Shown here piece after piece: positions 1,360 to 61,377 of a DNA stretch of 64,000 nucleotides (position 1 is its first letter; every line of letters begins with the position of its first letter). The translations under genes were made by a program, and so were the position numbers. The notes under the pieces were generated by a model. The model searched no databases. It saw only the letters and a list, made by a program, of their open reading frames with translations, and was not told the origin of the DNA. Origin of the DNA: Saccostrea echinata (lineage: Eukaryota); assembly GCF_033153115.1 (NCBI RefSeq), contig NW_026889776.1, positions 6,014,001 through 6,078,000 of the forward strand. Reading direction: 5' to 3'.

Positions 1360-2362
1360 AACAAGAGGCCCAGGGGCCACATCGCTCACCTGAGCACTGT
1401 GGCTAGGAAAAAAAAAATCAGTTTAGTGTTGAAAAGCTTAAATGCATAAGTGGTCCCAACCTACCCCTAAAAGGGAGTGGGGGGTATGATTTGAACAAAA
1501 TAAATCTACACTTACTAAGGATGCTTAGATATTTTTTTGACTGTGACATTTTTCTCTACAAATTGAACTTTCATTGTGGCCCCACCCTACCCCTGGAGGT
1601 CATGATTTGAACAAACTTGAATCTACACTATCTTTGGATGCTTCCATATAAATATGACAAACAGAGGCTTTGCTGTTCTTGAGAAGATTTTTCCTATATA
1701 TTCCTATGTAAAACTTTGATCGTTCATTGTGGCCCCACCCTACCCCTGGGGGTCATGATTTGAAAAAACTTGAATCTACACCACCTGAGGATGCTACCAC
1801 ATAAATATGACCAATCATAGCTTTGCTGTTCTTGAGAAGAGGATTTTTGAAGATTTTTCCTATATATTCCTATGTAAAACTTTGATCGTCCATTGTGGCC
1901 CCACCCTACCCCCAGGGGTCATGATTTGAAAAAACTTGAGCCCACACCACCTGAGGATGCTTCCACAGAAATGTTATCAATCATTGCTTTGTTGTTCTTG
2001 AGAAAAAGATTTTTGAAAATTTATTCTATATACATCTATGTTATACTTTGATCGTCCATTGTGGCCCCACCCTACCCCTGGGGGTCATGATTTGAACAAA
2101 CTTTAATCTACACCACCTGAGGATGCTTCCATATAAATATGACCAATCATAGCTTTGCTGTTCTTGAGAAGCAGATTTTTGAAGATTTTTCCTATATACA
2201 CCTATGTTATACTTTGATCGTCCATTGTGGCCCCACCCTATCCCCGGGGGTCATGATTTGAACAAATTTGAATCTACAATACCTGACAATAATTCCACAT
2301 GAGTTTCGTCTTTTCTGGCCCATTGGTTCTTGAGGAGAAGATTTTTCAATAATGCCATTAAT

Positions 2363-2394
<32 letters not shown>

Positions 2395-2481
2395 GGAGGG
2401 CGTGGCCCTTCGTTTGAACAAACTTGAATCCCATTCACCCAAGGATACTTTGTGCCAAGTTTGATTGAAATTGGCCCAGTA

Positions 2482-2523
<42 letters not shown>

Positions 2524-2610
2524 GCCAACGACGACGAAAACGCCGACAGACAACAGACAAATTTCGATCAGAAAAGCTCACTTGAGCCTTCAGCTCAGGT
2601 GAGCTAAAAA
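1360..2610 (+). mobile_element. Helentron/HINE (Helitron-N-like) element carrying ~5 tandem ~167-bp Cg170-like monomers
   Basis: Termini ACAAGAGGCCCAGGGGCCACATCGCTCACCTGAG ... GCTCACTTGAGCCTTCAGCTCAGGTGAGCTAAAA; TGTGGCCCCACCCTACCC recurs at ~1575, 1728, 1894, 2059 and 2226. Confidence 0.82.
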
Positions 2611-3589: not shown

Positions 3590-3874
3590 TTGTTTGTTTC
3601 TTTATTGTTTAACGTCCTCTCGAGAATTTTTCACTCATATGGAGACGCCACCACTTGCCGGTGGAGAGTTTTACTCGGCACGCAGGACCATTGAGAAGTG
3701 AGGGATCATTTTCGTGCCAGTACCTACTGCGACAAGGTACCTCGGTTTATACGGTCTCATCCGAAGGACCGGTCTCCACGTCCCACAGTGGGATTTGAAC
3801 CCGCGACGTAAGGATCAACTCCTTACTCTGCGACTCCAGAGCGAACGCTCTAACCACTGCCCCACGCGGGCGAC
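3590..3874 (-). mobile_element. tRNA-derived SINE, family A (long-variable-arm head, Deu/Nin-like core)
   Basis: A and B boxes on the minus strand; core CCTTCGGATGAGAC; (AAAC)n tail; 13-bp TSD AATACATGACTGT at 3577-3589 and 3875-3887. Confidence 0.85.
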
Positions 3875-5841
3875 AATACATGACTGTGTAATCACCACAT
3901 GCATGCTAATTATTACAAAATAATTTTCTATTGCACATCAAAATTCAAATTCTGGTAAAATCAGAGAAGAGAAAAGTTTTAATCGTTATGTAGATAAAAG
4001 CTCTACCCCTGATCCAGTATACCTAACAAAAAGTATATGCAATTTAAGAATTCTACTCCTGGTCATACCTGACAATAGTATACGGAGATAAACAATTACA
4101 TTTTTGTCAGGTTAATCCTGACAAAAATGTACGGAGATCAGGAATTCCATTCTTGGTTGGGTCAGACGTCTTCAATAAAATGAGATCAGGAATCCTACTC
4201 TTGATCTGGTCAGATTTCGATACAGTTTCAAAAGTATTTGATAGGGGAAAACTCATACAAACCTTTATTTACATGTTATGCATTTTTAGGAAAAGCAAAA
4301 ATGCAAACATAGCAATAAAATTGAGGATACTGTCAGAATTCCAAAGTACAAAGTAAAATGTAATACATTTTTGAAGAGAACATATGCGAAAAAAAACACT
4401 GATATTATCGATAAATTATATCTTTATATATTTTCCCTTAAGAGGTGCAAAGCACTTATTTATCAGAGGCAAACAAATTCATGAATTCAAGACAAATAAT
4501 AAACAATGAATGTTTATCATAAGTATAATGATAATTGTGCTGTTGACATGCATTATGTTTCATTGTTTCATGGATCAATAGATGAGAGATTGTTGAAAAT
4601 ATGGTATGTTTAGCATTTTCTTTTATAGCAAGTAAATTACAATAATATATCTTATAACTTCCTGCATGAAACAAAATCGTACATAATATTCGTAATGACC
4701 CATTGCATTTTGAGAAGGAAATACATTTGACTTAAATGTTTATTAACAATATGTCCACTAAAATTGCTACCAAAATATTTCACACACATGAATAAATATC
4801 ATTTTTTCAACACTATTGGTGAATTTAAATAGACATTGCCATTGATCAATAACACAGGCATATAAAAATTGTATCTCTAGGAAAGAAATTTAAATTTCAA
4901 TTCATCGCAAATCGCAAATAGAACTGCTCTGTTGGATATGCCAAAAAAATTAATAATGGTTTACAATTGCTTTTAGCAACAATTGCTTTTTAATTACTTC
5001 AATAAAAGTTTGTTTATTTCTCCTAATTTACAAAAGTTTCTAAAATATGTCGGTCTATCATGGAAATATGAACACATATCATATACTTTATCATACTTTT
5101 TATTTACAGTACCCTGCTAATGTACCAACTATTTCTCTTTATTTTATATTGACAATTTACCAAAGAAATCAGTCAGGTAAACTGAATATTGAAAAGGCTC
5201 TATAGATGAACCGATACAGACCAAAGACTGAGGATACGATAGTGACTGACTTGCAAATGAGCATTTCTTTTCCCATTTAACCGCCATTTTATTGACATTA
5301 TGAATATTTTATTTTTTAATCCTTTATTTATTATTTTCCTTTGTCCTTACTTTTTACTTTGTATTTGAATACTATTTGTACACATCCCCTTCGTCCACTA
5401 GGCAATGCTATATAAAATAAATAAATGTATAATTAGTTCTGAATGAAAATATTTGATAGATTGAAACCTCGTTTTGAAATTTTGTTTTTGTTTCTTTAAA
5501 GTCTATTATAAAGCAATTGAAATGATTGACTCCCCTACCGCATCTTATCTATCGTGGTATCTGCATTACATTAGGATCATTGCATAAAACTGTAACAACA
5601 AAGCGTTCTATTCTTTAAAAAAACACCAATTATTCATTAACGTATACATTGAATTGCAAAACCTCTTATGATAAAAACGTGCATTTTAATAAAGGAAACA
5701 GTTGCTCATGCTTGAAGCTCTTTTGTTACAAACTCCTTACCAGTCATAAGAAAAATCCCTTTTCAAAAGAAAATGTTCGACTCTCGGATCATTTTTATAA
5801 CAAAAAATATAATATTCATTCCTTTTTATTAACATTCTGTG

Positions 5842-6156
5842 ATGCTTGGACTTGAATTAATTTTTTTCATGTGTTCAGTGCAATTTGCAGTATTGGAACA
5901 AACTGATGTTGCTACTAACATAAAAGTGACTGCACCTGGCCAACGTATTAAAACTAGCAACGTCATTAAAGTTTTAAATATCATAGGACAGAAACAGTGT
6001 ATTCGAGAATGTTTACAGAACGGTCAATGTAAATCTGTGAACTATCAAAGACAATATCTAAATTGCGAACTTATAGCAACAAAATATGGTGATTCAGAAA
6101 CTTATTTAGTTTTGGATGCAGACTTTGATTACATTGCAATGGAAAATCAGCCGCAG
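5842..6156 (+). CDS. Copy 1, exon 1: signal peptide + PAN/Apple domain (MLGLELIFF...MENQPQ)
   Basis: ATG at 5842; hydrophobic N-terminus; PAN pattern C-x3-C-x5-C-x-S-V-N-Y-x6-C-E-L; ends CAG|GTTTGT (phase 0); 315 nt, same length as the three paralogous exons. Confidence 0.88.
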
Positions 6157-6419
6157 GTTTGTATTTTTATCAAACAATTCATTTAGCTAAGTCAAACAGA
6201 CACTTTAAAAAAGGCTTACATTTCGATTTGTAGCTATTGATAGGTTAATTTCATGTGTCGAATTTTAAAACTTCTTATTTTGCAAACCATGAATTTTGAA
6301 CAAAATTCAATGTGAAAATCGCAATTTCATAGTGAAAAAAAAAAAAACACGATAATATTAACTTTGGTGTTTATTTTTTTAACCTACCAACTTGAAGATG
6401 TATAATGACTTACTTTTAG

Positions 6420-6504
6420 GAGCTAACTGGACTTTGTAACTCAACGTCCTGTGTGGGGCAGTGTACTGTTTTGAGTAATGGAAAAGCATTCTGCATACAA
6501 AGAC
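6420..6504 (+). CDS. Copy 1, exon 2: Cys-rich linker (ELTGLCNSTSCVGQCTVLSNGKAFCIQR)
   Basis: TTTTAG| acceptor, |GTAAGC donor, phase 0 to 1, 85 nt; homologous to 35736-35820 and 57573-57657. Confidence 0.85.
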
Positions 6505-7909
6505 GTAAGCATAAACGTAAATCTTCTGAATACAAATTCTTGTTGAAGAACTATTTAAGAAGGAATACCATACAAAAAGTTTATTGCATTTTAAAAACAT
6601 ATCATATTAAATATGTTTTCAACACTGAACGACCATTATGACCATTTCAGAATTGAAAATTAACTTCTTTTTTTTTTAATTTCCAAATACATTCCAATTT
6701 TTATCGAAAATGCGATCCACTAATACTTCTTTACATACGGGTCAGCAGGCATGCTATCGAAGCCATCTTAGGACTAAAACATATCTTAAGAGATATCTTA
6801 GTCCTAAGTGAGACCATTGAATCTGTCCTAACTTAAGACATATCTTAGGATTTCTCCTAAAGTTAAGACACTGCAAGATCCGTTCTAACATGAACTTAGG
6901 AGACTCCAAACTTTGTACAATAATTTCCTATCAGACATTTAGTATGGGAGGGGGGGGGGCAAGGTGGGTCCTCCTATTACTCCCCTAAAACCTTTTACAA
7001 AAACGTTTCTTCTACCCCCGCTCCCCTCCCCAATAAATATATCGAGTTTAGAGGTTTTCCTTTTTTGTGTCTCTCAGAGTTAATCAGGAACTTTTTCTTT
7101 TTTTTTTGTTTGTACGTTTATTATACGGTTGTACATTTTAGCTACAATCTGTTGCTCTGCCCACCCCCTTCCCTCCAACTTTTAAAAACACTGAGTGCTT
7201 CGTTCCTACAATGTACCTATGTATAAATAATAGTCCAATTGTAATTTGCCGTACTATTATGATATTTCTTCTTAGCAATTAAGAAATTAAATTGACTTGA
7301 TTTAATATTGGAGTTAGTGGTTACAATTCCAAAAGTATTCAAGTGAAGATTTAGCGAGACACAGTAACTTGAAGAGGTCACCTCCAAGGGCTATTCATGC
7401 TCGCTATACCTTATATGAAATGGAGGAGGTTCTATACCGCGTCTAAAGCTATCTTACTATAATCGAGGAAGTATTTCCCTGATTCCAAGTATGGGAGCTA
7501 GATTCATCTAGCAAATCGTACAGGACATTTTACCATGAAATTTCTATTTCGAACTGGTATATCTTATTCATCAGTTTACTTTTAAAACCACATTACCACA
7601 GAGAGACATGCCATCAACTTCTGTTATACCGAGTTTACATTTTACCGCTTTCGACAGCCATGCTTGGATTCATGATACGCATTTATTCAACATCACATAA
7701 ACGCCTATAAATGAAAACTGTTTGATCAATCTAGCGTTTACATGATTCTTTCCCATTCTGTATATATTACGCAAACGTACGAACACCTAAATCCGGATGA
7801 ATATAACGAAATAAGAATATGATCAGTATCTGTTGAAAAAATTCTTCGGACTGCACCGATTTATGTGAGTCGGCCGGCAACGCCAAGCAAAGCTAATTTT
7901 ATTTTTGGC

Positions 7910-8610
7910 CTAATGATGCTTTCATATAAATATGTCTAATCATGGCCTTGCTGTTCATGATATTTTTTTTAAAAAGATTTTTCCTATATATTCTTATTTT
8001 AATCTTTGATCGCCTATTGTGGCCCCGACCTACCTCCAGGAATCATATAAAAAATATGAATCTACACTTTCTGAGGATGATTACATATAAATAAGACTAT
8101 TCATGGCTACGCTGTTTTTGATGTTTTTAAAGATATTTTTCCATATACTAGAATTCATATGTAAAAATTTCATCGCCTTTTGTGACCCCACCCTAGCCTG
8201 GGAGTCGTGAATAGAATAAACTGAACCTCCACTGTCTGAGGGTGCTTCCATATAAACATTACTAATCTGAAGATTTGAAAGGATTTTTCCCCACCTCTAG
8301 GGATTGATTACTATGCTTAAATCTTCACTCTTCAATTATCATTTTACTTAAGTTTCCTCATATCTAGACCTGTGGTTCTTTAGAAGAAGATTTTTAAAAG
8401 AGGTCATCAATTTTTTTCTAATTCTTAATTATCTCCTTAGCTTGGTTCTTCATTTGACGAAAGTTAGGTGTGCTGTTTAGCAAGTTTGGTTGAAATTGGC
8501 CCCGTTTTTCGTGAGAAAAAGTCGAAAATATGAAAGGTTTACTGACAGGCGGACGACGAAAAAAATGTGATAAGAAAAACTAATCTGAGTTTTCAGCTCA
8601 GGTGAGTAAA
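7910..8610 (+). mobile_element. Degenerate copy of the same Cg170-bearing HINE family (intron 2 of copy 1)
   Basis: Diverged monomers (TGTGGCCCCGACCTAC, TGTGACCCCACCCTAG); terminal TTCAGCTCAGGTGAGTAAAA. Confidence 0.65.
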
Positions 8611-8863
8611 ACAAATAATTTGCTTTGTTTTCAGAATTAGTTTTTGAAACATTTAATTTGATTGACAACACAAGTTTTTTTTTTTGTTTTTTTTTTGTTT
8701 TTTGTTTTTTGTTTTTTTTTTTTTTTTTGTTTGTTTTTGTTTTTGTTTTTTTTTTTGCGTGCAAAGGAATATGTACATTTTTTTCTGGAAAAAAAAAATT
8801 CCAGGTCTTTCAATCCCTTTAGTTTTAACCATGTTTTTCAAATATTCATCTTTCAAAAGTCAT

Positions 8864-9186
8864 TTGAGCGCTCGCTCCTTGATCGGGAGGTCGTGAGTTC
8901 GAATCTCGGCCGCGACTGACCTAAGTCGATAAAAAAAAGGGTAGCAACTGTTCCTTCGCCATGCGTTCGGCACTTTGAAGTGAAAGTTGCGGGTTCTTCG
9001 GATGAGACCTTAAAAACCGAGGTCCCCTGTCACGGCAGGCATTGGCACGATAAAGACCCTTCTCTGCTCAATGGCCCTGAGTGCCGAGTAAAGGTCAAAA
9101 TTTAAAGCCCTTCACCGGTATATGGTGACGTCTCTATATAAGTGGAAAATTCTCGAATGGGACGAAAACAACAAACAATCAATCAA
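8864..9186 (+). mobile_element. tRNA-derived SINE, family B, slightly 5'-truncated
   Basis: B box GAGTTCGAATC; core TTCGGATGAGACCTTAAAAACCGAGG; (AATC)n tail; TSD TCAAAAGTCAT at 8853 and 9187. Confidence 0.85.
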
Positions 9187-10134
9187 TCAAAAGTCATATA
9201 TCATGAAAAGAAGCAAATAATATATAAATAAATAGCTTTAAAAATAGAAAAATGATAGAAAATTAAAATTTATAATGTGACTTATAATAAATTAGACATT
9301 GAGAAATTAATCAAGGTCATGCATTACATTGTTATTTGGTCCCTTGTTTGTACGATTACTCATTTTAAAGTTTTGTCTTTAAAGATATGTTAAAAGAACT
9401 TCAGTGGGTAATAAATCAGATAAGGGTTCTTCAGATCCTTTCACTGATAAGATAATAAAGAATCTTCTGTATCAGTAAAAGACATCGCTGAAGGTTTAGC
9501 AGCTCTGTAACTTGCAGTATCGAAAAAGTAGCGATAATTAGAGTTATTTTTTAAGGGGCAGAATTAGAGTCATGGAAGGAAATATCAGAAGCAGATTTAA
9601 AGAGAACATAGAAGATGTAATGACAGAAAACAAAAGAGACACAAAACGAGCAAAATTTCTCATAATTCGAAAGAGCTTAACATTTGACCTTTGTCGAAAT
9701 GTGAATGACAAAGGTTCAAGACGAAGACTGCAGTTGGCCCCATGTCATGTCTTTATTAAATTTTAAAAAATAACGTAATCAGCCAAAAAAAAAAAAAAAA
9801 ATCAGGAGCAATAACTCATAATATGGGCTGATAAATCATACTGCAATGAAAAGATTGAAGAGTCTTCTACTTAAGAAGACATTGGTGCATTTTTCCTATC
9901 TCTACGCGGATTTCTTAAACTTTTTCGTCATTGGTGTTTCCACTTATATACATAAGTAATTAATCAACCATACATTTAGCAGTTACTTATACAACTTGAA
10001 TACATCTTCAAGGAAATAGAATAACATGCATTTAAACGTCATATTCTGTGTTTTGTTATTGATGTAATTCAATAATATCACCATAAGGAAATGATAAGGA
10101 ACTCATTAATTTTGTAACATAACTTACGAAAATA

Positions 10135-10308
10135 CAGTTATACTTTAGTACCTCAGACACGAATATCTCGAATACCATGGATATGTCAAGTGATTAAGAA
10201 GTCTCAACCACTCATTCTTTAAGAATTTAACTCTTAATATCTCAAATACTCGGATATCTCGAAGTTCTTCATTGGTCACATCGATTTCGAGATAACGAAG
10301 TTTGACTG
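10135..10308. mobile_element. Tc1/mariner-type MITE
   Basis: TA|CAGTTATACTT ... AAGTTTGACTG|TA; internal ATATCTCGAA repeats. Confidence 0.68.
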
Positions 10309-10392
10309 TAGATAATCATTTAAAAACCATTATATCTGCAGCATTATTGCCTGTTTTTTGAATCATATTTTGTCTCTTTTTTTGAACATCAG

Positions 10393-10563
10393 GTCGTTGT
10401 CCTGAAAATTACACGTTGAACACTACCCTTCACCTTTGCTTAGCATCTCATACCGAATCTCTTACATGGTATGAGGCTAGGGATTTTTGTAATTCTAAAG
10501 ACGGAAGGACAAGACTAGCTGTGCTGGATACCAGAAGCAAAGTGGAAGCAGCTCTATCAATTA
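10393..10563 (+). CDS. Copy 1, exon 3: N-terminal half of C-type lectin domain (RCPENY...LCL...TWYEARDFC...LAVLDT)
   Basis: CATCAG| acceptor in phase 1; long-form CTLD motifs CP..Y, C, W.EA..FC, LA.L; donor A|GTACTT is weak, so the 3' end is less certain (alternative 10617). Confidence 0.78.
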
Positions 10564-10998
10564 GTACTTATGTCTGTCTGTCCGTCTGTCTGTCTGTCTC
10601 TTTCTCTCTTTCACTCAGTACTTAATAGTTATTGATAAGTTATTCATTATGCACGTTAATTTCTACATAGTAATTCCAAATGCGTCTTAAAGTTGAAATC
10701 TGAAATCATTGCGAACCCGATTCTTCTGAATCATACATGAAATTCATGGTTTATGTTTTTTAACTGCCATTTCAATATTTGTTAACATGCGTTCTAGTTA
10801 CGCTTCATTTTCAATAGGCAATATTTGATCAATAGTTAGGATGTCAAGGGATAGGTATTTAACCACTCAGGACAAAATACTTCGGTATTCATACCATCCA
10901 AAATTGAGAAGATTTAGCTAATACATTTATCATCTTTTGCATGATTCCATTTTTACAACTTTAAATTAATCTTTAAATGTAGATATCAAGAAATCTTG

Positions 10999-11040
<42 letters not shown>

Positions 11041-11220
11041 ATCTTCTAAAATTAACCTTATAAATGTAAAGCATATTGTAACGTTAAATAGTATAGGCAA
11101 GTAAAATATCTAGGTGTAGCCTTAACACACCCGCGTACATTTTCTTTTGTTCTTGGAGGTATTCGTGAGGACTTAAACTATTATATTACAATAAATTTTT
11201 GGCTTTCATTATTTTTACAG

Positions 11221-11465
11221 CTCGTGCTTCATTTACACACTACTGGATTGGAGCAACATATAATGAAGCAGAGAGTCAATATTCTGGTAAAAACATTTTC
11301 TACTGGAACGATGGGAAACAGACTGATTCTACCCTTATGTCTCCATATACGATTGAACTTCGATCTGGATGTTGTGTTTTTCTTTACACTTTCACTGACC
11401 TGGTATCTTTTTGGTCAGATCCGTGCACTGATCGACGGGCGGTGATTTGTGAATATATCCTGTGA
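11221..11465 (+). CDS. Copy 1, exon 4: C-terminal half of C-type lectin domain (YWIG...FYWNDG...CCV...WSDPC...ICEYIL*); spliced product about 271 aa
   Basis: TTTTTACAG| acceptor in phase 1; WIG, W.DG, C, W.D.C and ICE motifs; TGA stop; the four exons total 816 nt in one open frame. Confidence 0.85.
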
Positions 11466-11826
11466 ATGTATTTTTTGGGGGGTAGGGGGTCGGGGGATGG
11501 GTTGAAGATGAACCATAAAAAATTTGAAATTTTTATGTAAATATTCATAAATTTTTTGGAGATTTTTTAACATTTTAAATTAATGGATCACCTGTATTAA
11601 CTAACCGTTGCATTGACTGAAGTTTCCGGATTTTGTTTTCGTCCATTTTCCCCCAATTTGTAGTAAATTCCATGGTTTTTATAATGTCCTTAGCAAATCA
11701 CAAATACAACTTTTCATCGGGTCCTATTTTAATTGATATATTTCGTTGTTTTATGCTAAATTTGACGACAGATTATTCTGTCAACCACATAATTACATAG
11801 GGCTAACGGCGGGTGACTCCGGTCGA

Positions 11827-12481
11827 CAGTGGCATATATTCCTGTCTGCTAATATGTAGGCTAGTTTATAACCTGAGGCGCAAAGTGTGGGTATGCAAGG
11901 AGGGGGTGGTCCTCTCTTCACAGGGATCGGGGGGTCAGAGGGAGCATTTTTGAAAACTCGAAGACATCTACGATTGTCATTTGACCAGTAAAAATAATAT
12001 TTTAAATAAATATATTTTCAGTTTGTATAATGATATGAAGACCTCTTAACAAAATCGAGAAGTCTTAACTTATCCTTTTACTCTGCTTAGAAAATATGGA
12101 AACTTCCTTACTGAATAGTCCAAATACGAACAATACATTTAGTTTCCTACTAACCAAAAATATGTCCAGTAATTAGTTTCATTTCCTGCACTAAATATGG
12201 ACTACTGTTGCTGCCCATGGTTTTGAAATTGTCTGATACATACCTTATATAACACTTGAATATAGAAATAGTTATGTCATGCAATGTAAAGTAAAACAGT
12301 AAATGTTGGATAGGTATAAAAGTGCGGATTGCTAAGAATGCTTTTTTGCATTTGTAACAAAATAAAATTAATAGATAAGATTTATTATCAACTTTCGTCC
12401 CCCTTTTTCAACTAAATTTTTATCCCTGAGAAAATGATGTGTAGGCTACAGCCTTTTTCCAATTTGGAATATACGCCACTG
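11827..12481. mobile_element. MITE with 16-bp TIR, nested in another repeat
   Basis: CAGTGGCATATATTCC ... GGAATATACGCCACTG; GTCGA duplicated on both sides. Confidence 0.75.
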
Positions 12482-25997: not shown

Positions 25998-27220
25998 AAC
26001 AAAAGGCCCAAGGGCCACACCGCTCACCTGAGCACTGTTGCTGGGGGGGGGGGGAGCAAAAATCAGTTCAGTATTGAAAAGCTTTAATGCATAAGTGGTC
26101 CCGACCTACCCCTGAAAAGGAACGGGGGGGGGGGGTATGATTTGAACAAAATTTAATCTACACTAACTAAAGATGCTTACATATTTCTTTTTCTGTTGCT
26201 TTTTTCCTACAAGTTTGGTCTTTCATTATGGTCCCACCCTACCCCCGGGGGTGATGGTTTGAACAAATCTGAATCTATACTATCTGAGGATGCTCCCATA
26301 TAATTATGATCAATTATAGCTTTGCTGGTCTTGAGAAGAAGATTTTTTTTCGAAAATTTGCCTATGTATTCATATGCATAACTTTAATCATCAATTGTGG
26401 CTCCACCCTATCCCCAGGGGGTCATGATTTTTTTTTTTCAAATATGAATCTGCACTATCTTAGGATACATCCGAATAGATAATAACCAATCATGGTTTTG
26501 CTGTTCTTGAGAAGATGTTTTCTATATATTCCTATATAAAACTTTGATCGTCCATTGTGGCCCCACCCTACACCAGGGGGTCATGACTTGAACAAACTTG
26601 AATCTACATTTCCTGAGGATGCTTCCACATTAAATGACCAATCATTGCTTCGCTGTTCTAGAGAAGGAGATTTTTAATTTTTTTCCTATATACTCCTATG
26701 TAAAGCTTTGATTGTCCATGGTGGCTCCACCCTACCCCCAGTGTTCATGATTTGAACAAAATTGAATCTAGACCACTTGAGGATACTTCCATATAAATAT
26801 GACCAATCATGGCTTTGCTGTTCTTGAAAAGAGGATTTTTTGAAGATTTTTGCTTTATATTCCTATATAAAACTTCGATCGTCCGTTGTGGTCCCATCCT
26901 ACCCCCGGTGGCCATTATTTAAACAAATTTTGATTCACACTACCTGAAAATGATTCCACTTGAGTTTTATCTTTCCTGGCCCAGTGGTGCTTGAGAAGAA
27001 GATTTTTAAAAGATGCCATTAGTTTTTCACTAATTTGTAATTATCTCCCCTTGGAAGAAGACGTGGCCCTTCATTTGAACAAGCTTGAATTCCATTTACC
27101 CAAGGATACTCTGTGCGAAGTTTGGTTGAAATTGACCCAGTAGTTCTCGAGAAGAAGATGAAAATGTAAAAGTTAACGACAACGACGACAAACAACGGAC
27201 AAATTTCGATCAGAAAAGCA
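25998..27220 (+). mobile_element. Cg170-bearing HINE, ~5 monomers, right terminus clipped
   Basis: Begins ACAAAAGGCCCAAGGGCCACACCGCTCACCTGAGC; collinear with 1360-2580; stops at GATCAGAAAAGC. Confidence 0.8.
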
Positions 27221-28239: not shown

Positions 28240-29142
28240 GTTTCTGATCACCCGTTGTCCGTCGTCCGTCTGTAAAGTTTTCACATTTTCAACTTCTTCT
28301 CAAGAACCACTGGGCCAATTTTAAGCAAACTTGGTACAAAGTATCCTTGGGTGAAGGGAAGTTTAAATTGTTAAAATGAAGGGCCAAGTCCTCTTCAAAG
28401 GGGAGATAATCAAGAAAAGACAAAAATTGGGTGTGGTCATTAAAAAAATCTTCTCCTCAAGAACCACTGAGCCAGAAAGGCTGAAACTTATGTGGAAGCA
28501 TTCTGAGGTAGAGTAGATTCTAAATTGTACAAATCATGACCCCCGGGGTAGGTCGGCGCCACAATAGGGAATCCAAGTTTTACATTAGAATATGTAGTAA
28601 AAATCTTTAAAAATCTTCTCAAGAACCACTGGGCCAGAAAGGCTGAAACTTATGTGGAAGCATCATTGGGAAGTGTAGATTCTAAATTGGTTAAATCATG
28701 ACCCCCGGGGGTGGGGCGGGACCACAATAGGGAATCCAAGTTTTACATTGAAATATGTAGTAAAAATCTTAAGAAATCTTCTTCCCAAGAACCACTGGAC
28801 CAGAAAGGCTGAAACTTATGTGGAAGCATCATTGGGGTAGTGTAGAAGTAATTGTTCGAATCATGACCCCCGGGGATAGGACAGAGCCACAATAGGGAAT
28901 CCAAGTTTTACATTGAAATATGCAGAAAAAATCTTTAAAATCTTCTTCTAAAGAACCACTGGGCCAGAAAGGCCGAATCTTAATATGTGGAAGCATCCTG
29001 GGGTAGGGTAGATTCTAACTGGTCAAATCTTGACCCCTGGGGGTAGGGCAGGGCCACAATAAGAACTACAAGGGGGGATCAGGTGAAAAACAGCAAGGCC
29101 AAAGTTACTCAGGTGAGCGTTGTGGCCCATGGGCCTCTTGTT
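28206..29142 (-). mobile_element. HINE element in opposite orientation with ~4 tandem ~165-bp monomers, inserted in a T-run
   Basis: TTTTAGCTCACCTGAGCTGAAAGCTCAAGTGAGC ... CAGGTGAGCGTTGTGGCCCATGGGCCTCTTGTT; AAGAACCACTGGGCCAGAAAGGCTGAAACTT repeated; flanks match the uninterrupted 51098-51170. Confidence 0.85.
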
Positions 29143-33038: not shown

Positions 33039-33353
33039 ATGTTTGGACTTAAAAACATTTTATTAATTTGTGCGACGAACTGTGTCATATCTGAAAATAC
33101 TGATAACATCAACAATATACAAGTAACCGCACCAGGCCAATGTATCAAGACAAACAAAGTAATAAAAGTCTTTACTATCATTGGACAAAAACAGTGTGTT
33201 CGAAAATGTTTACGGAATGGTCAATGTCAATCTGTTAACTATCGAAGACAGCAACTCAATTGTGAACTAATTGCAGCAAAATTCGGAGATTCGGAAACTT
33301 CTTTAATTCTGGATTCAGAATGTGACTATATTGAAATGGAAAATCAGCCAAAG
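33039..33353 (+). CDS. Copy 3, exon 1: signal peptide + PAN/Apple domain
   Basis: ATG at 33039; PAN Cys pattern; AAG|GTTAGA donor; 315 nt. Confidence 0.88.
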
Positions 33354-35735: not shown

Positions 35736-35820
35736 GGGCTAGCAGGATCTTGTAAGTCAACATCTTGCAAAGGGCAGTGTTCTGCACTGAGTAGCGGAAA
35801 AACAGCCTGTATTCAAGATC
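35736..35820 (+). CDS. Copy 3, exon 2: Cys-rich linker (GLAGSCKSTSCKGQCSALSSGKTACIQD)
   Basis: TTTTCCAG| acceptor, |GTAAGT donor, 85 nt, phase 0 to 1. Confidence 0.87.
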
Positions 35821-54340: not shown

Positions 54341-54655
54341 ATGTTTGGCTTAAAATTTTTTTTATTTATTTGCGCGATACACTGTGTCGTTTTGGAAAAA
54401 AATGATAACGTAAACAACATAAAAGTGACAGCACCAGGCCAATGTATTCAAACTAACAAGGTCATAAAAAGTTTAACTATCATAGGACAAAAACAGTGTA
54501 TTCGAAAATGTTTACAAAATGGTCAATGTAGATCTGTTAATTACCGAAGACAGCAACTTCATTGTGAACTAATCGCAGCAAAGTATGGAGACACGGGCGT
54601 TTCCTTAGTACTGGATTCAGAATGTGATTACATTGAAATGGAAAATCAACCAGAG
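54341..54655 (+). CDS. Copy 4, exon 1: signal peptide + PAN/Apple domain
   Basis: ATG at 54341; PAN Cys pattern; GAG|GTTAGT donor; 315 nt. Confidence 0.88.
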
Positions 54656-56534: not shown

Positions 56535-57459
56535 TTTATACCCCCACTCCGGAAGAGAGGTGGGTATACTGTCTTACCCTTATGTGTCTGTTTCTGTGTC
56601 CCTGCGTCTGTCCGTAGCAGAATTTCGTAGCAATTTTCTCAGCAACTACTCATCACAAATGATTGAAAGTTTAGCACACTCTATGTTTAGGAATGCCATA
56701 TGGTGGAATTCATTTTTGCGCGAATCCGATGTCAACTTCCTGTTTATCTGTGCGTCTGACCGTATCATACATAATAAATTTTTGTCGCAGTTTTCTCAGC
56801 AATTACTCATCGCAGATGCTTGAAATTTTAGCACACTTTTTGTTTAGGCATGCCATATGGTGGGATTCATTTTTGTGCGAATCTGATGTCAACTTCATGT
56901 TTATCCATGCGTCTTACCGTACCATACATAACAAATTTTGGTCGCAGGTTTCTCAGCAATTACTTATTGCAGATGCTTGAAAGTTTAGCACACTCTTTGT
57001 TTAGGCATGTCATATGGTGGGATACATTTTTGTGAGAATACGATGTCAACATCCTGTTCATCAGTGCGTCTGTCTCTACCATTCATAGCAAATTTTGGTT
57101 GCAGTTTTCTCAGAAACTATTCATCGCAAATGCTTGAAATTTTAGCACATTCTTTGTTTAGGCATGCCATATGGTGGGAATCATTTTTGTACGAATCTGA
57201 TAACAATTTCCTGTTTATCCGTTCGTCTGTCCGTACCATACATAACAAATTTTGGTCGCAGTTTTCTCAGCATCTACTTATCGCAGATGCTGAGAGTTTA
57301 GCACACTCTTTGTTTAGGCATGACATATGGCGAAATTTTTTTTTGTACGAATCTGATGTCAACTTCCTGTTTATCCCTGTGTCTATCCATAAATGAACTT
57401 ATGTATTTACATCAGAACGGGGGTATTATTAGTGAGCATTGGCTCACAGACTTCTTGTT
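56535..57459 (+). mobile_element. Second HINE family with ~5 tandem 157-bp monomers (intron 1 of copy 4)
   Basis: 5' TTTTATACCCCCAC...GTGGGTATA inverted repeat, (TCTG)n-like tract, ATGCCATATGGTGG spaced 157 bp (56693, 56850, 57007, 57164), 3' GGGGGTAT plus hairpin GTGAGC-ATTG-GCTCAC. Confidence 0.8.
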
Positions 57460-57572: not shown

Positions 57573-57657
57573 GGGCTAGCTGGATCCTGTAAGTCAGCAT
57601 CCTGCAAAGGCCAGTGCACTGTTCTGAGCAGCGAAAAAGCATTTTGCATTCAAGGTC
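57573..57657 (+). CDS. Copy 4, exon 2: Cys-rich linker (GLAGSCKSASCKGQCTVLSSEKAFCIQG)
   Basis: TTTCCAG| acceptor, |GTAAGT donor, 85 nt. Confidence 0.87.
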
Positions 57658-61297: not shown

Positions 61298-61377
61298 GTT
61301 GTGAGATTGGCTGGGTTCGGTATGAAACCAAATGTTACCTGTTCAACCATACAAGTCAATCATGGCCGGATGCAGCA
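61298..61377 (+). CDS. Copy 4, exon 3: start of CTLD (CEIGWVRYETKCYLFNHTSQSWPDAA); remaining exons are outside the window or lost
   Basis: TTTTTAAG| acceptor in phase 1; GW....KCYLF...W.DA; |GTAAGT donor at the same position as in copy 3. Confidence 0.85.

Follow-up and report, generated by a model that had tools for sequence, protein, structure and literature searches.

Probable replacement of a C-type lectin head on a PAN–linker cassette in a tandem gene array of the oyster Saccostrea echinata

Results

The window analyzed here, the whole stretch of 64,000 nucleotides (G000:C27:6014001-6078000), lies in a contiguous 700-kb array (C27:5,450,001-6,148,000) with 21 PAN exons of the window's family. 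Ten of them are followed by a linker exon and a lectin head that we call type A (the lectin domain of copy 1), nine by a linker exon and the type-B head of copies 3 and 4, and two by nothing; three orphan type-A fragments are also present. The predicted products are secreted proteins of ~270 aa with the order signal peptide, PAN, linker, and lectin, and the closest named relatives of the window's genes are Saccostrea proteins. Outside the array, type-A genes were found on contigs C19, C33, C40, C18, and C46, and a third head, type C, stands behind a PAN–linker pair of the array's family twice on C3 and once on C75. The ~8.5-kb stretch around copy 1 (window positions 4500-13000) recurs with 99% identity 418 kb upstream (G000:C27:5,600,359-5,608,848), and the whole unit of copies 1 to 4 is present three to four times, which reflects either recent segmental duplication or uncollapsed haplotypes.

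All four copies lie on the forward strand. Copy 1 begins with an exon for a predicted signal peptide and a PAN_1 domain (5842..6156; Pfam PAN_1 33.4 bits, cut-off 21.4) that ends in a phase-0 donor, followed by an 85-nt linker exon (6420..6504, phase 0 to 1). The linker does not qualify as an EGF-like domain, as it has four cysteines versus six and reaches only 16.7 bits with EGF_Tme5, below the cut-off of 22. As originally predicted, the lectin domain is encoded by two exons of 171 and 245 nt with canonical splice ends and an open frame, the first at 10393..10563 (phase 1 to 1, without an internal phase-0 intron) and the second at 11221..11465 (to the stop, without EPN or QPD; Lectin_C E=0.023, below the cut-off). 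The four-exon model has AG/GT ends, phases 0, 1, 1, and an open frame of 271 aa, with all splices being predicted, and the stretch from 6504 to 10393 yielded no further lectin exon. A protein search with the second lectin exon of copy 1 as query, which was word-based and weak, gave no match. The dN/dS of the copy 1 head is near 0.5, which fits a gene under constraint. In copy 2, the signal peptide and PAN exon (19793..20104) is not followed by linker or lectin exons. Comparison with its intact paralogue at G000:C27:5837440, which has a type-A head, places the approximate junction of a ~9.2-kb deletion of the linker and type-A exons at 22285..22291 (near 22288), as positions 5839920 and 5849113 of the paralogue each align to C27:6036288.

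Copy 3 consists of the signal peptide and PAN exon (33039..33353; PAN_1 32.4 bits, cut-off 21.4), the linker exon (35736..35820, phase 0 to 1), and type-B exons of 83 nt (41820..41902, phase 1 to 0) and 88 nt (41991..42078, phase 0 to 1), followed by a third exon with QPD and WGD (42561..42786) that ends in a phase-2 GTAAGT donor. The pattern of 83, 88, and 230 nt in the original prediction is obtained when the third exon is read through to the first stop at 42790; given the phase-2 donor at 42786, this exon probably comprises 226 nt, and copy 3 most likely continues from there into an extra tail exon predicted at 45426..45453. The tail exon is homologous to the tail exon of a stand-alone lectin gene on contig C1 (E=3e-7; 84% identity across 44 nt, acceptor included). 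A phase-2 GTAAG follows the lectin domain in three of five B genes, and just the three copy-3-like genes showed the tail exon. Copy 4 comprises the signal peptide and PAN exon (54341..54655), the linker exon (57573..57657), and an 80-nt first type-B exon (61298..61377), with exons 2 and 3 lying past the window near G000:C27:6081650 and 6091468.

The PAN and linker of copies 1 and 3 are close paralogues (identities 67/105 and 17/28), whereas their lectin domains share little (34/125 pairwise, about 19% in a multiple alignment). Copies 3 and 4 are interrupted after W.(E/D)AA by a phase-0 intron that is absent from copy 1, and both head types are joined via a phase-1 intron, with the linker donor and the A and B acceptors all in phase 1. 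All of this agrees with what had been noticed before. Since 171 nt equals 83 plus 88 nt and a phase-1 intron lies shortly before the WIG motif in both types, A and B differ by one internal intron.

Type A can be counted among the C-type lectin-like domains (PF00059) by its relatives, by profile, and by fold. With Lectin_C (cut-off 22.6), exon 2 of copy 1 alone stays below the threshold at 15.9 bits; among whole A domains of relatives, P0010 and P0027 reach 32.4 and 34.2 bits, and P0026 and P0065 have no match. A profile from non-A domains matches copy 1 at E=4e-10, and a predicted model of P0010 (pLDDT 65) found only C-type lectin folds among the PDB matches listed, which suggests a lectin fold for the A head on the basis of this relative rather than of copy 1 itself. 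Canonical Ca2+-dependent sugar-binding CRDs are characterized by EPN or QPD together with WND-like motifs. None of the ten genomic A domains contains EPN or QPD, and W(S/A)D occurs in four of them. The B genes have W-x-D combined with EPN or QPD in four of five cases and with EPT in one; copy 3 has QPD and WGD, copy 4 has EPN and WAD, and the C heads have EPN and WND. By the motif rule, we take copy 3 to be of the galactose type and copy 4 of the mannose type. As far as motifs can tell, type B would thus belong to the canonical Ca2+-dependent sugar-binding CRDs, and type A would not.

The second lectin exon of copy 1 has 16 matches in the genome; of these, 15 follow a PAN exon of the family, and the remaining one stands by itself within the array as an orphan. 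A single first lectin exon of 168-174 nt is seen in all ten modelled A genes, and the missing intron is therefore a family trait; an intron loss with fast divergence in copy 1, which had been named as the finding that would speak against shuffling, fails as an explanation. A PAN profile search gave 376 matches at E<=0.001, and among the matches listed are annotated PAN–linker–A proteins from S. cucullata, C. virginica, and C. gigas. The 16 A domains form one side of a branch (100/100) in a tree built with 43 lectin domains; the genome has several hundred. Between copy 1 and its A paralogues, lectin and PAN dS agree in eight of nine cases (e.g., 0.12/0.10, 1.29/1.07, 1.66/1.67, up to saturation; here and below, dS was calculated from some 70-80 sites in each pair, using the simple NG86 correction), which indicates that the two modules were inherited together. 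Between copy 1 and all five B genes, PAN dS is 0.66-0.84 and lectin dS is 1.64 to saturated. Type A is therefore likely the old partner of the array's PAN family, and copy 1 the conservative gene. Deep A members lie at G000:C40:4,973,264-4,983,820, and in their named relatives P0014 and P0027 the linker and the head are separated by a Thr/Pro-rich, mucin-like stalk, which in P0014 measures about 300 aa; the linker-to-head intron may hence also receive spacer exons.

The closest relative of type B outside the array is a PAN-less gene at C1:29.387-29.390 Mb. Its signal-peptide exon, located 274 nt upstream, ends in phase 1; after a first intron of ~220 nt come exons of 80 and 88 nt and a third with a phase-2 donor, and then the tail exon. 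No PAN of the array's family was found in C1:29.365-29.465 Mb. All five modelled B domains are at a dS of 0.45-0.66 from this gene and at 1.44 to saturated from eight other stand-alone relatives, from which the C1 gene itself is separated by 1.7 or more, and B and the donor group are joined with 99/93 in the tree of 43 domains. Relatives of the donor, P0005 of S. cucullata, P0006 of Ostrea edulis, and P0007 of Mytilus galloprovincialis, have Lectin_C without PAN and represent the source family of type B: they share its exon sizes, phases, EPN/QP-type motif, and short G-ending tail, but unlike the array's B genes have no PAN or linker, the Ostrea and Mytilus proteins consisting of signal peptide and lectin only. 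Similarity also extends into introns. For the introns flanking the copy 3 head, including a short match in the intron upstream of its first lectin exon, 1/500 and 7/500 shuffles scored as high against the donor's introns, compared with 234/500 and 85/500 in the copy-1 controls; the upstream intron shows no match in copy 4 (157/500) and a weak one in the 5740k gene (20/500). The kept introns point to copying at the DNA level and not to retroposition. A 0.8-kb match to the donor region downstream of copy 4 may be a repeat.

It could be argued that the fusion is an artefact of gene modelling and that B exons are transcribed separately or the predicted linker–lectin splices are not used, as the linker introns of several B genes are long (3.6-11 kb) and filled with repeats, and as the joined proteins in the databases are predicted models. 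We regard this as very unlikely. The order PAN, linker, B1, B2, B3 is kept in 9/9 B units with matching phases in the five that were modelled, the donor's signal-peptide exon has no match within B introns, no stop exon was modelled near the linkers, and a joined model of 265 aa exists in S. cucullata.

The nearest relatives of type C are tandem genes on C14, at a dS of 0.53-0.58 and with an intron similarity that 0/500 shuffles reached in both tests. This tandem array of five genes lies at G000:C14:1,514,540-1,609,000. The C14 genes have an unrelated PAN-like exon that ends in phase 1 and is followed directly, without a linker, by the type-C domain. We considered these genes as PAN-less donors and rejected this, as the PAN-like exon is present (Pfam 19.4 and 18.1 bits, below the cut-off); it gave no BLASTP alignment with the copy 1 PAN. 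Type C thus likely represents a separate swap onto the PAN–linker cassette of the array family. The direction from C14 to PAN–linker is also likely, albeit less secure, as the forks that would support it are unstarred in the tree of 43 domains.

Separate trees for PAN and lectin domains had been proposed as a check. All PAN-linked heads (A+B+C) as one clade were rejected (AU p=1.4e-46), as was B+C (AU p=1e-70), so that at least one head replacement is certain under the model. A clade of A+B alone was not rejected (AU p=0.12), and neither was a grouping of the stand-alone relatives on one side without B, i.e., with the root on the stem of B (AU p=0.45), and the placement of all A-bearing PANs on one side was borderline (AU p=0.06). 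These unrooted tests are weak due to the long A stem and leave the direction unfixed, so that the case for a direction is built on dS and gene structure. That the A+B clade was not rejected, together with the common exon length and the intron before WIG, could be taken to mean that no shuffling took place and that A and B are sister heads, with the loss of one intron and fast divergence in A. However, the internal dS of A (1.3 to saturated) exceeds the split of B from its donor (0.45-0.66), and A can therefore not branch from the stem of B; the missing intron is shared by all ten modelled A genes; and, at 19% identity, A resembles B no more than it does the stand-alone lectins (17-21%) or type C (21%). 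The sole rescue would be a C1 gene that descended from a B gene and lost its PAN, which is opposed by its signal-peptide exon and by the Ostrea and Mytilus relatives. We consider a history without shuffling to be the least probable of all.

In the PAN DNA tree, the copy-1, B, and C PANs are grouped apart from deep A PANs (100/98), with no resolved order among the three, and the PAN split between B and copy 1 (dS 0.66-0.84) is near the distance between B and its donor. The 5837k gene is a mosaic: its PAN lies closer to a B gene (dS 0.35) than to copy 1 (dS 0.75), its head is at a dS of 0.22 from copy 1, and its intron after the linker is similar to that of copy 1. A nested position of B within A had seemed proven by this gene, but we dropped the argument, as the dS values show a later mosaic, likely from unequal crossover or conversion within the array. 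Later exchange has thus blurred the array. Could copy 1 then be the shuffled gene after all, with PAN and linker of a B-type ancestor duplicated ahead of a resident type-A lectin? Its PAN is indeed nearer to B PANs than to deep A PANs (dS 1.07 or more), the 5837k gene resembles a B-like PAN on a linker and head like those of copy 1, and orphan A exons are present in the array. However, no stand-alone type-A gene was found among the 16 genome matches, type A partners the deepest PANs, in Crassostrea too, the head and PAN of copy 1 co-diverge, and it is type B that has an identifiable PAN-less donor. We therefore hold this reversed scenario to be highly improbable.

Discussion

Our data suggest, with a probability of roughly 0.85, that copy 1 keeps the ancestral head and that copies 3 and 4 go back to a paralogue in which exons copied from the C1 stand-alone lectin, introns included, took the place of the original head. 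The original prediction of one cassette fused to two unrelated lectin domains thus stands with respect to the separate ancestry and the incongruent histories of the modules, but the view that shuffling made copy 1 the exception finds no support. Nor is there support for the proposed landing of the cassette in front of a resident lectin by partial duplication: in the case of type B, it is likely the lectin exons that entered the array as copies, and the donor stays on another contig with a signal-peptide exon of its own. We propose that a DNA-level duplication had its breakpoints in the ~220-nt first intron of the donor and, on the recipient side, in an array gene's long linker intron, which would allow the linker donor to splice in frame to the new acceptor, and that the chimera would then have spread through tandem duplication. 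A separate swap would have joined the cassette to the type-C head that is shared with the unrelated PAN-lectin genes on C14. In both cases, a head without canonical sugar and calcium motifs would have been exchanged for one with them.

Classical exon shuffling joins modules via phase-compatible introns. The junction at issue here is phase-compatible, as the type-C acceptor and the donor's signal-peptide exon are in phase 1 like the linker donor and the A and B acceptors, and comparison of the sequences indicates that the modules differ in ancestry and that a donor can be identified. The oyster case is like the classical one in its phase-1 intron junction and in the donor introns that were carried along, and unlike it in the terminal position of the B module (phase 1 to stop), which is not a symmetric, internal one. 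The mechanism is textbook, but the case is a clean and fresh example of it, and an unusually well-preserved one, with recipient, donor, phase, leftover intron, tail exon, and relative date in one genome. The head swap on one cassette seems to have occurred at least twice.

The swaps are predicted to have installed calcium-dependent sugar binding on the same secreted scaffold, and the outcome would be sugar recognition, likely in mucosal or haemolymph defence. The three heads on one scaffold offer a natural comparison for the roles of the PAN module and of the non-canonical head. Other oyster proteins with PAN_1 and Lectin_C have the same architecture (P0001-P0003, P0010, and P0014 of S. cucullata; P0027 of C. 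virginica; P0026 of C. gigas), and those of S. cucullata include all three head types, as in the genome of the array. In the databases, oyster PAN-lectins are named 'perlucin-like', 'macrophage mannose receptor 1-like', 'hepatic lectin-like', or uncharacterized, and in the literature, as covered by main texts outside closed journals, we found no account of this PAN-lectin family or of separate origins of its heads. An immune role may be assumed by analogy with bivalve lectins in general, as treated in the accessible text of PMC10140915. That paper describes bivalve-specific multidomain CTLD proteins, and its main text contains no match for PAN or apple domains, exons, or shuffling; domain grafting in lophotrochozoan RLRs is described in the accessible text of PMC8998645, and what is accessible of PMC3269628 is not relevant to head swaps. 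As far as the accessible parts of PMC10140915 and PMC8998645 go, the systems they describe likewise represent lineage-specific domain rearrangement in bivalve immune genes, and the oyster array differs from them by a replacement within the same fold that leaves the Pfam architecture unchanged, and by a traceable donor and approximate breakpoint. As old and new heads share their fold, such swaps would be overlooked in counts of domain architectures and missed by a domain-level survey.

In more distant proteins, the same PAN class precedes SRCR, sushi, F5/8, and TSP1 domains, which suggests that molluscs in general have varied heads on PAN cassettes. One may speculate that the PAN–linker cassette serves as a secreted scaffold for repeated use, with new recognition heads taken up again and again at its long phase-1 intron, and that two independent swaps of non-sugar-binding for sugar-binding heads in Saccostrea, with later exchange in the array, reflect a recurring, selected retargeting of immune lectins that is invisible to domain-architecture surveys. 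We put forward this broader idea tentatively and consider it rather doubtful in its entirety.

Several minor observations concern the array as such. Orphan type-A exons lie at duplication junctions (G000:C27:5819073, 6008269-6012184, and 6092548), and one is located 0.9 kb downstream of the third lectin exon of copy 4; they are possibly raw material for more swaps, or alternative last exons. In-frame stops or frameshifts are found in several A paralogues (G000:C27:5831275, 6104009, 5524853, 5535698, and 5559318), which indicates birth-and-death turnover of the array. The linker of the 6125k B gene (G000:C27:6134468) is 80% identical to that of copy 1 and has the same start, compared with 68-73% for other B linkers, and possibly represents a short conversion tract. 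Two tRNA-Ser genes called by ARAGORN in the window (3780-3871 on the reverse strand and 49262-49355 on the forward strand) lie within a dispersed repeat and are probably tRNA-derived SINE heads. Arrays of ~166-nt and 157-nt units occur within dispersed elements at window positions 1530-2590, 26000-27220, 28250-29100, and 56615-57390, and are presumably satellite- or Helitron-like repeats of oysters.
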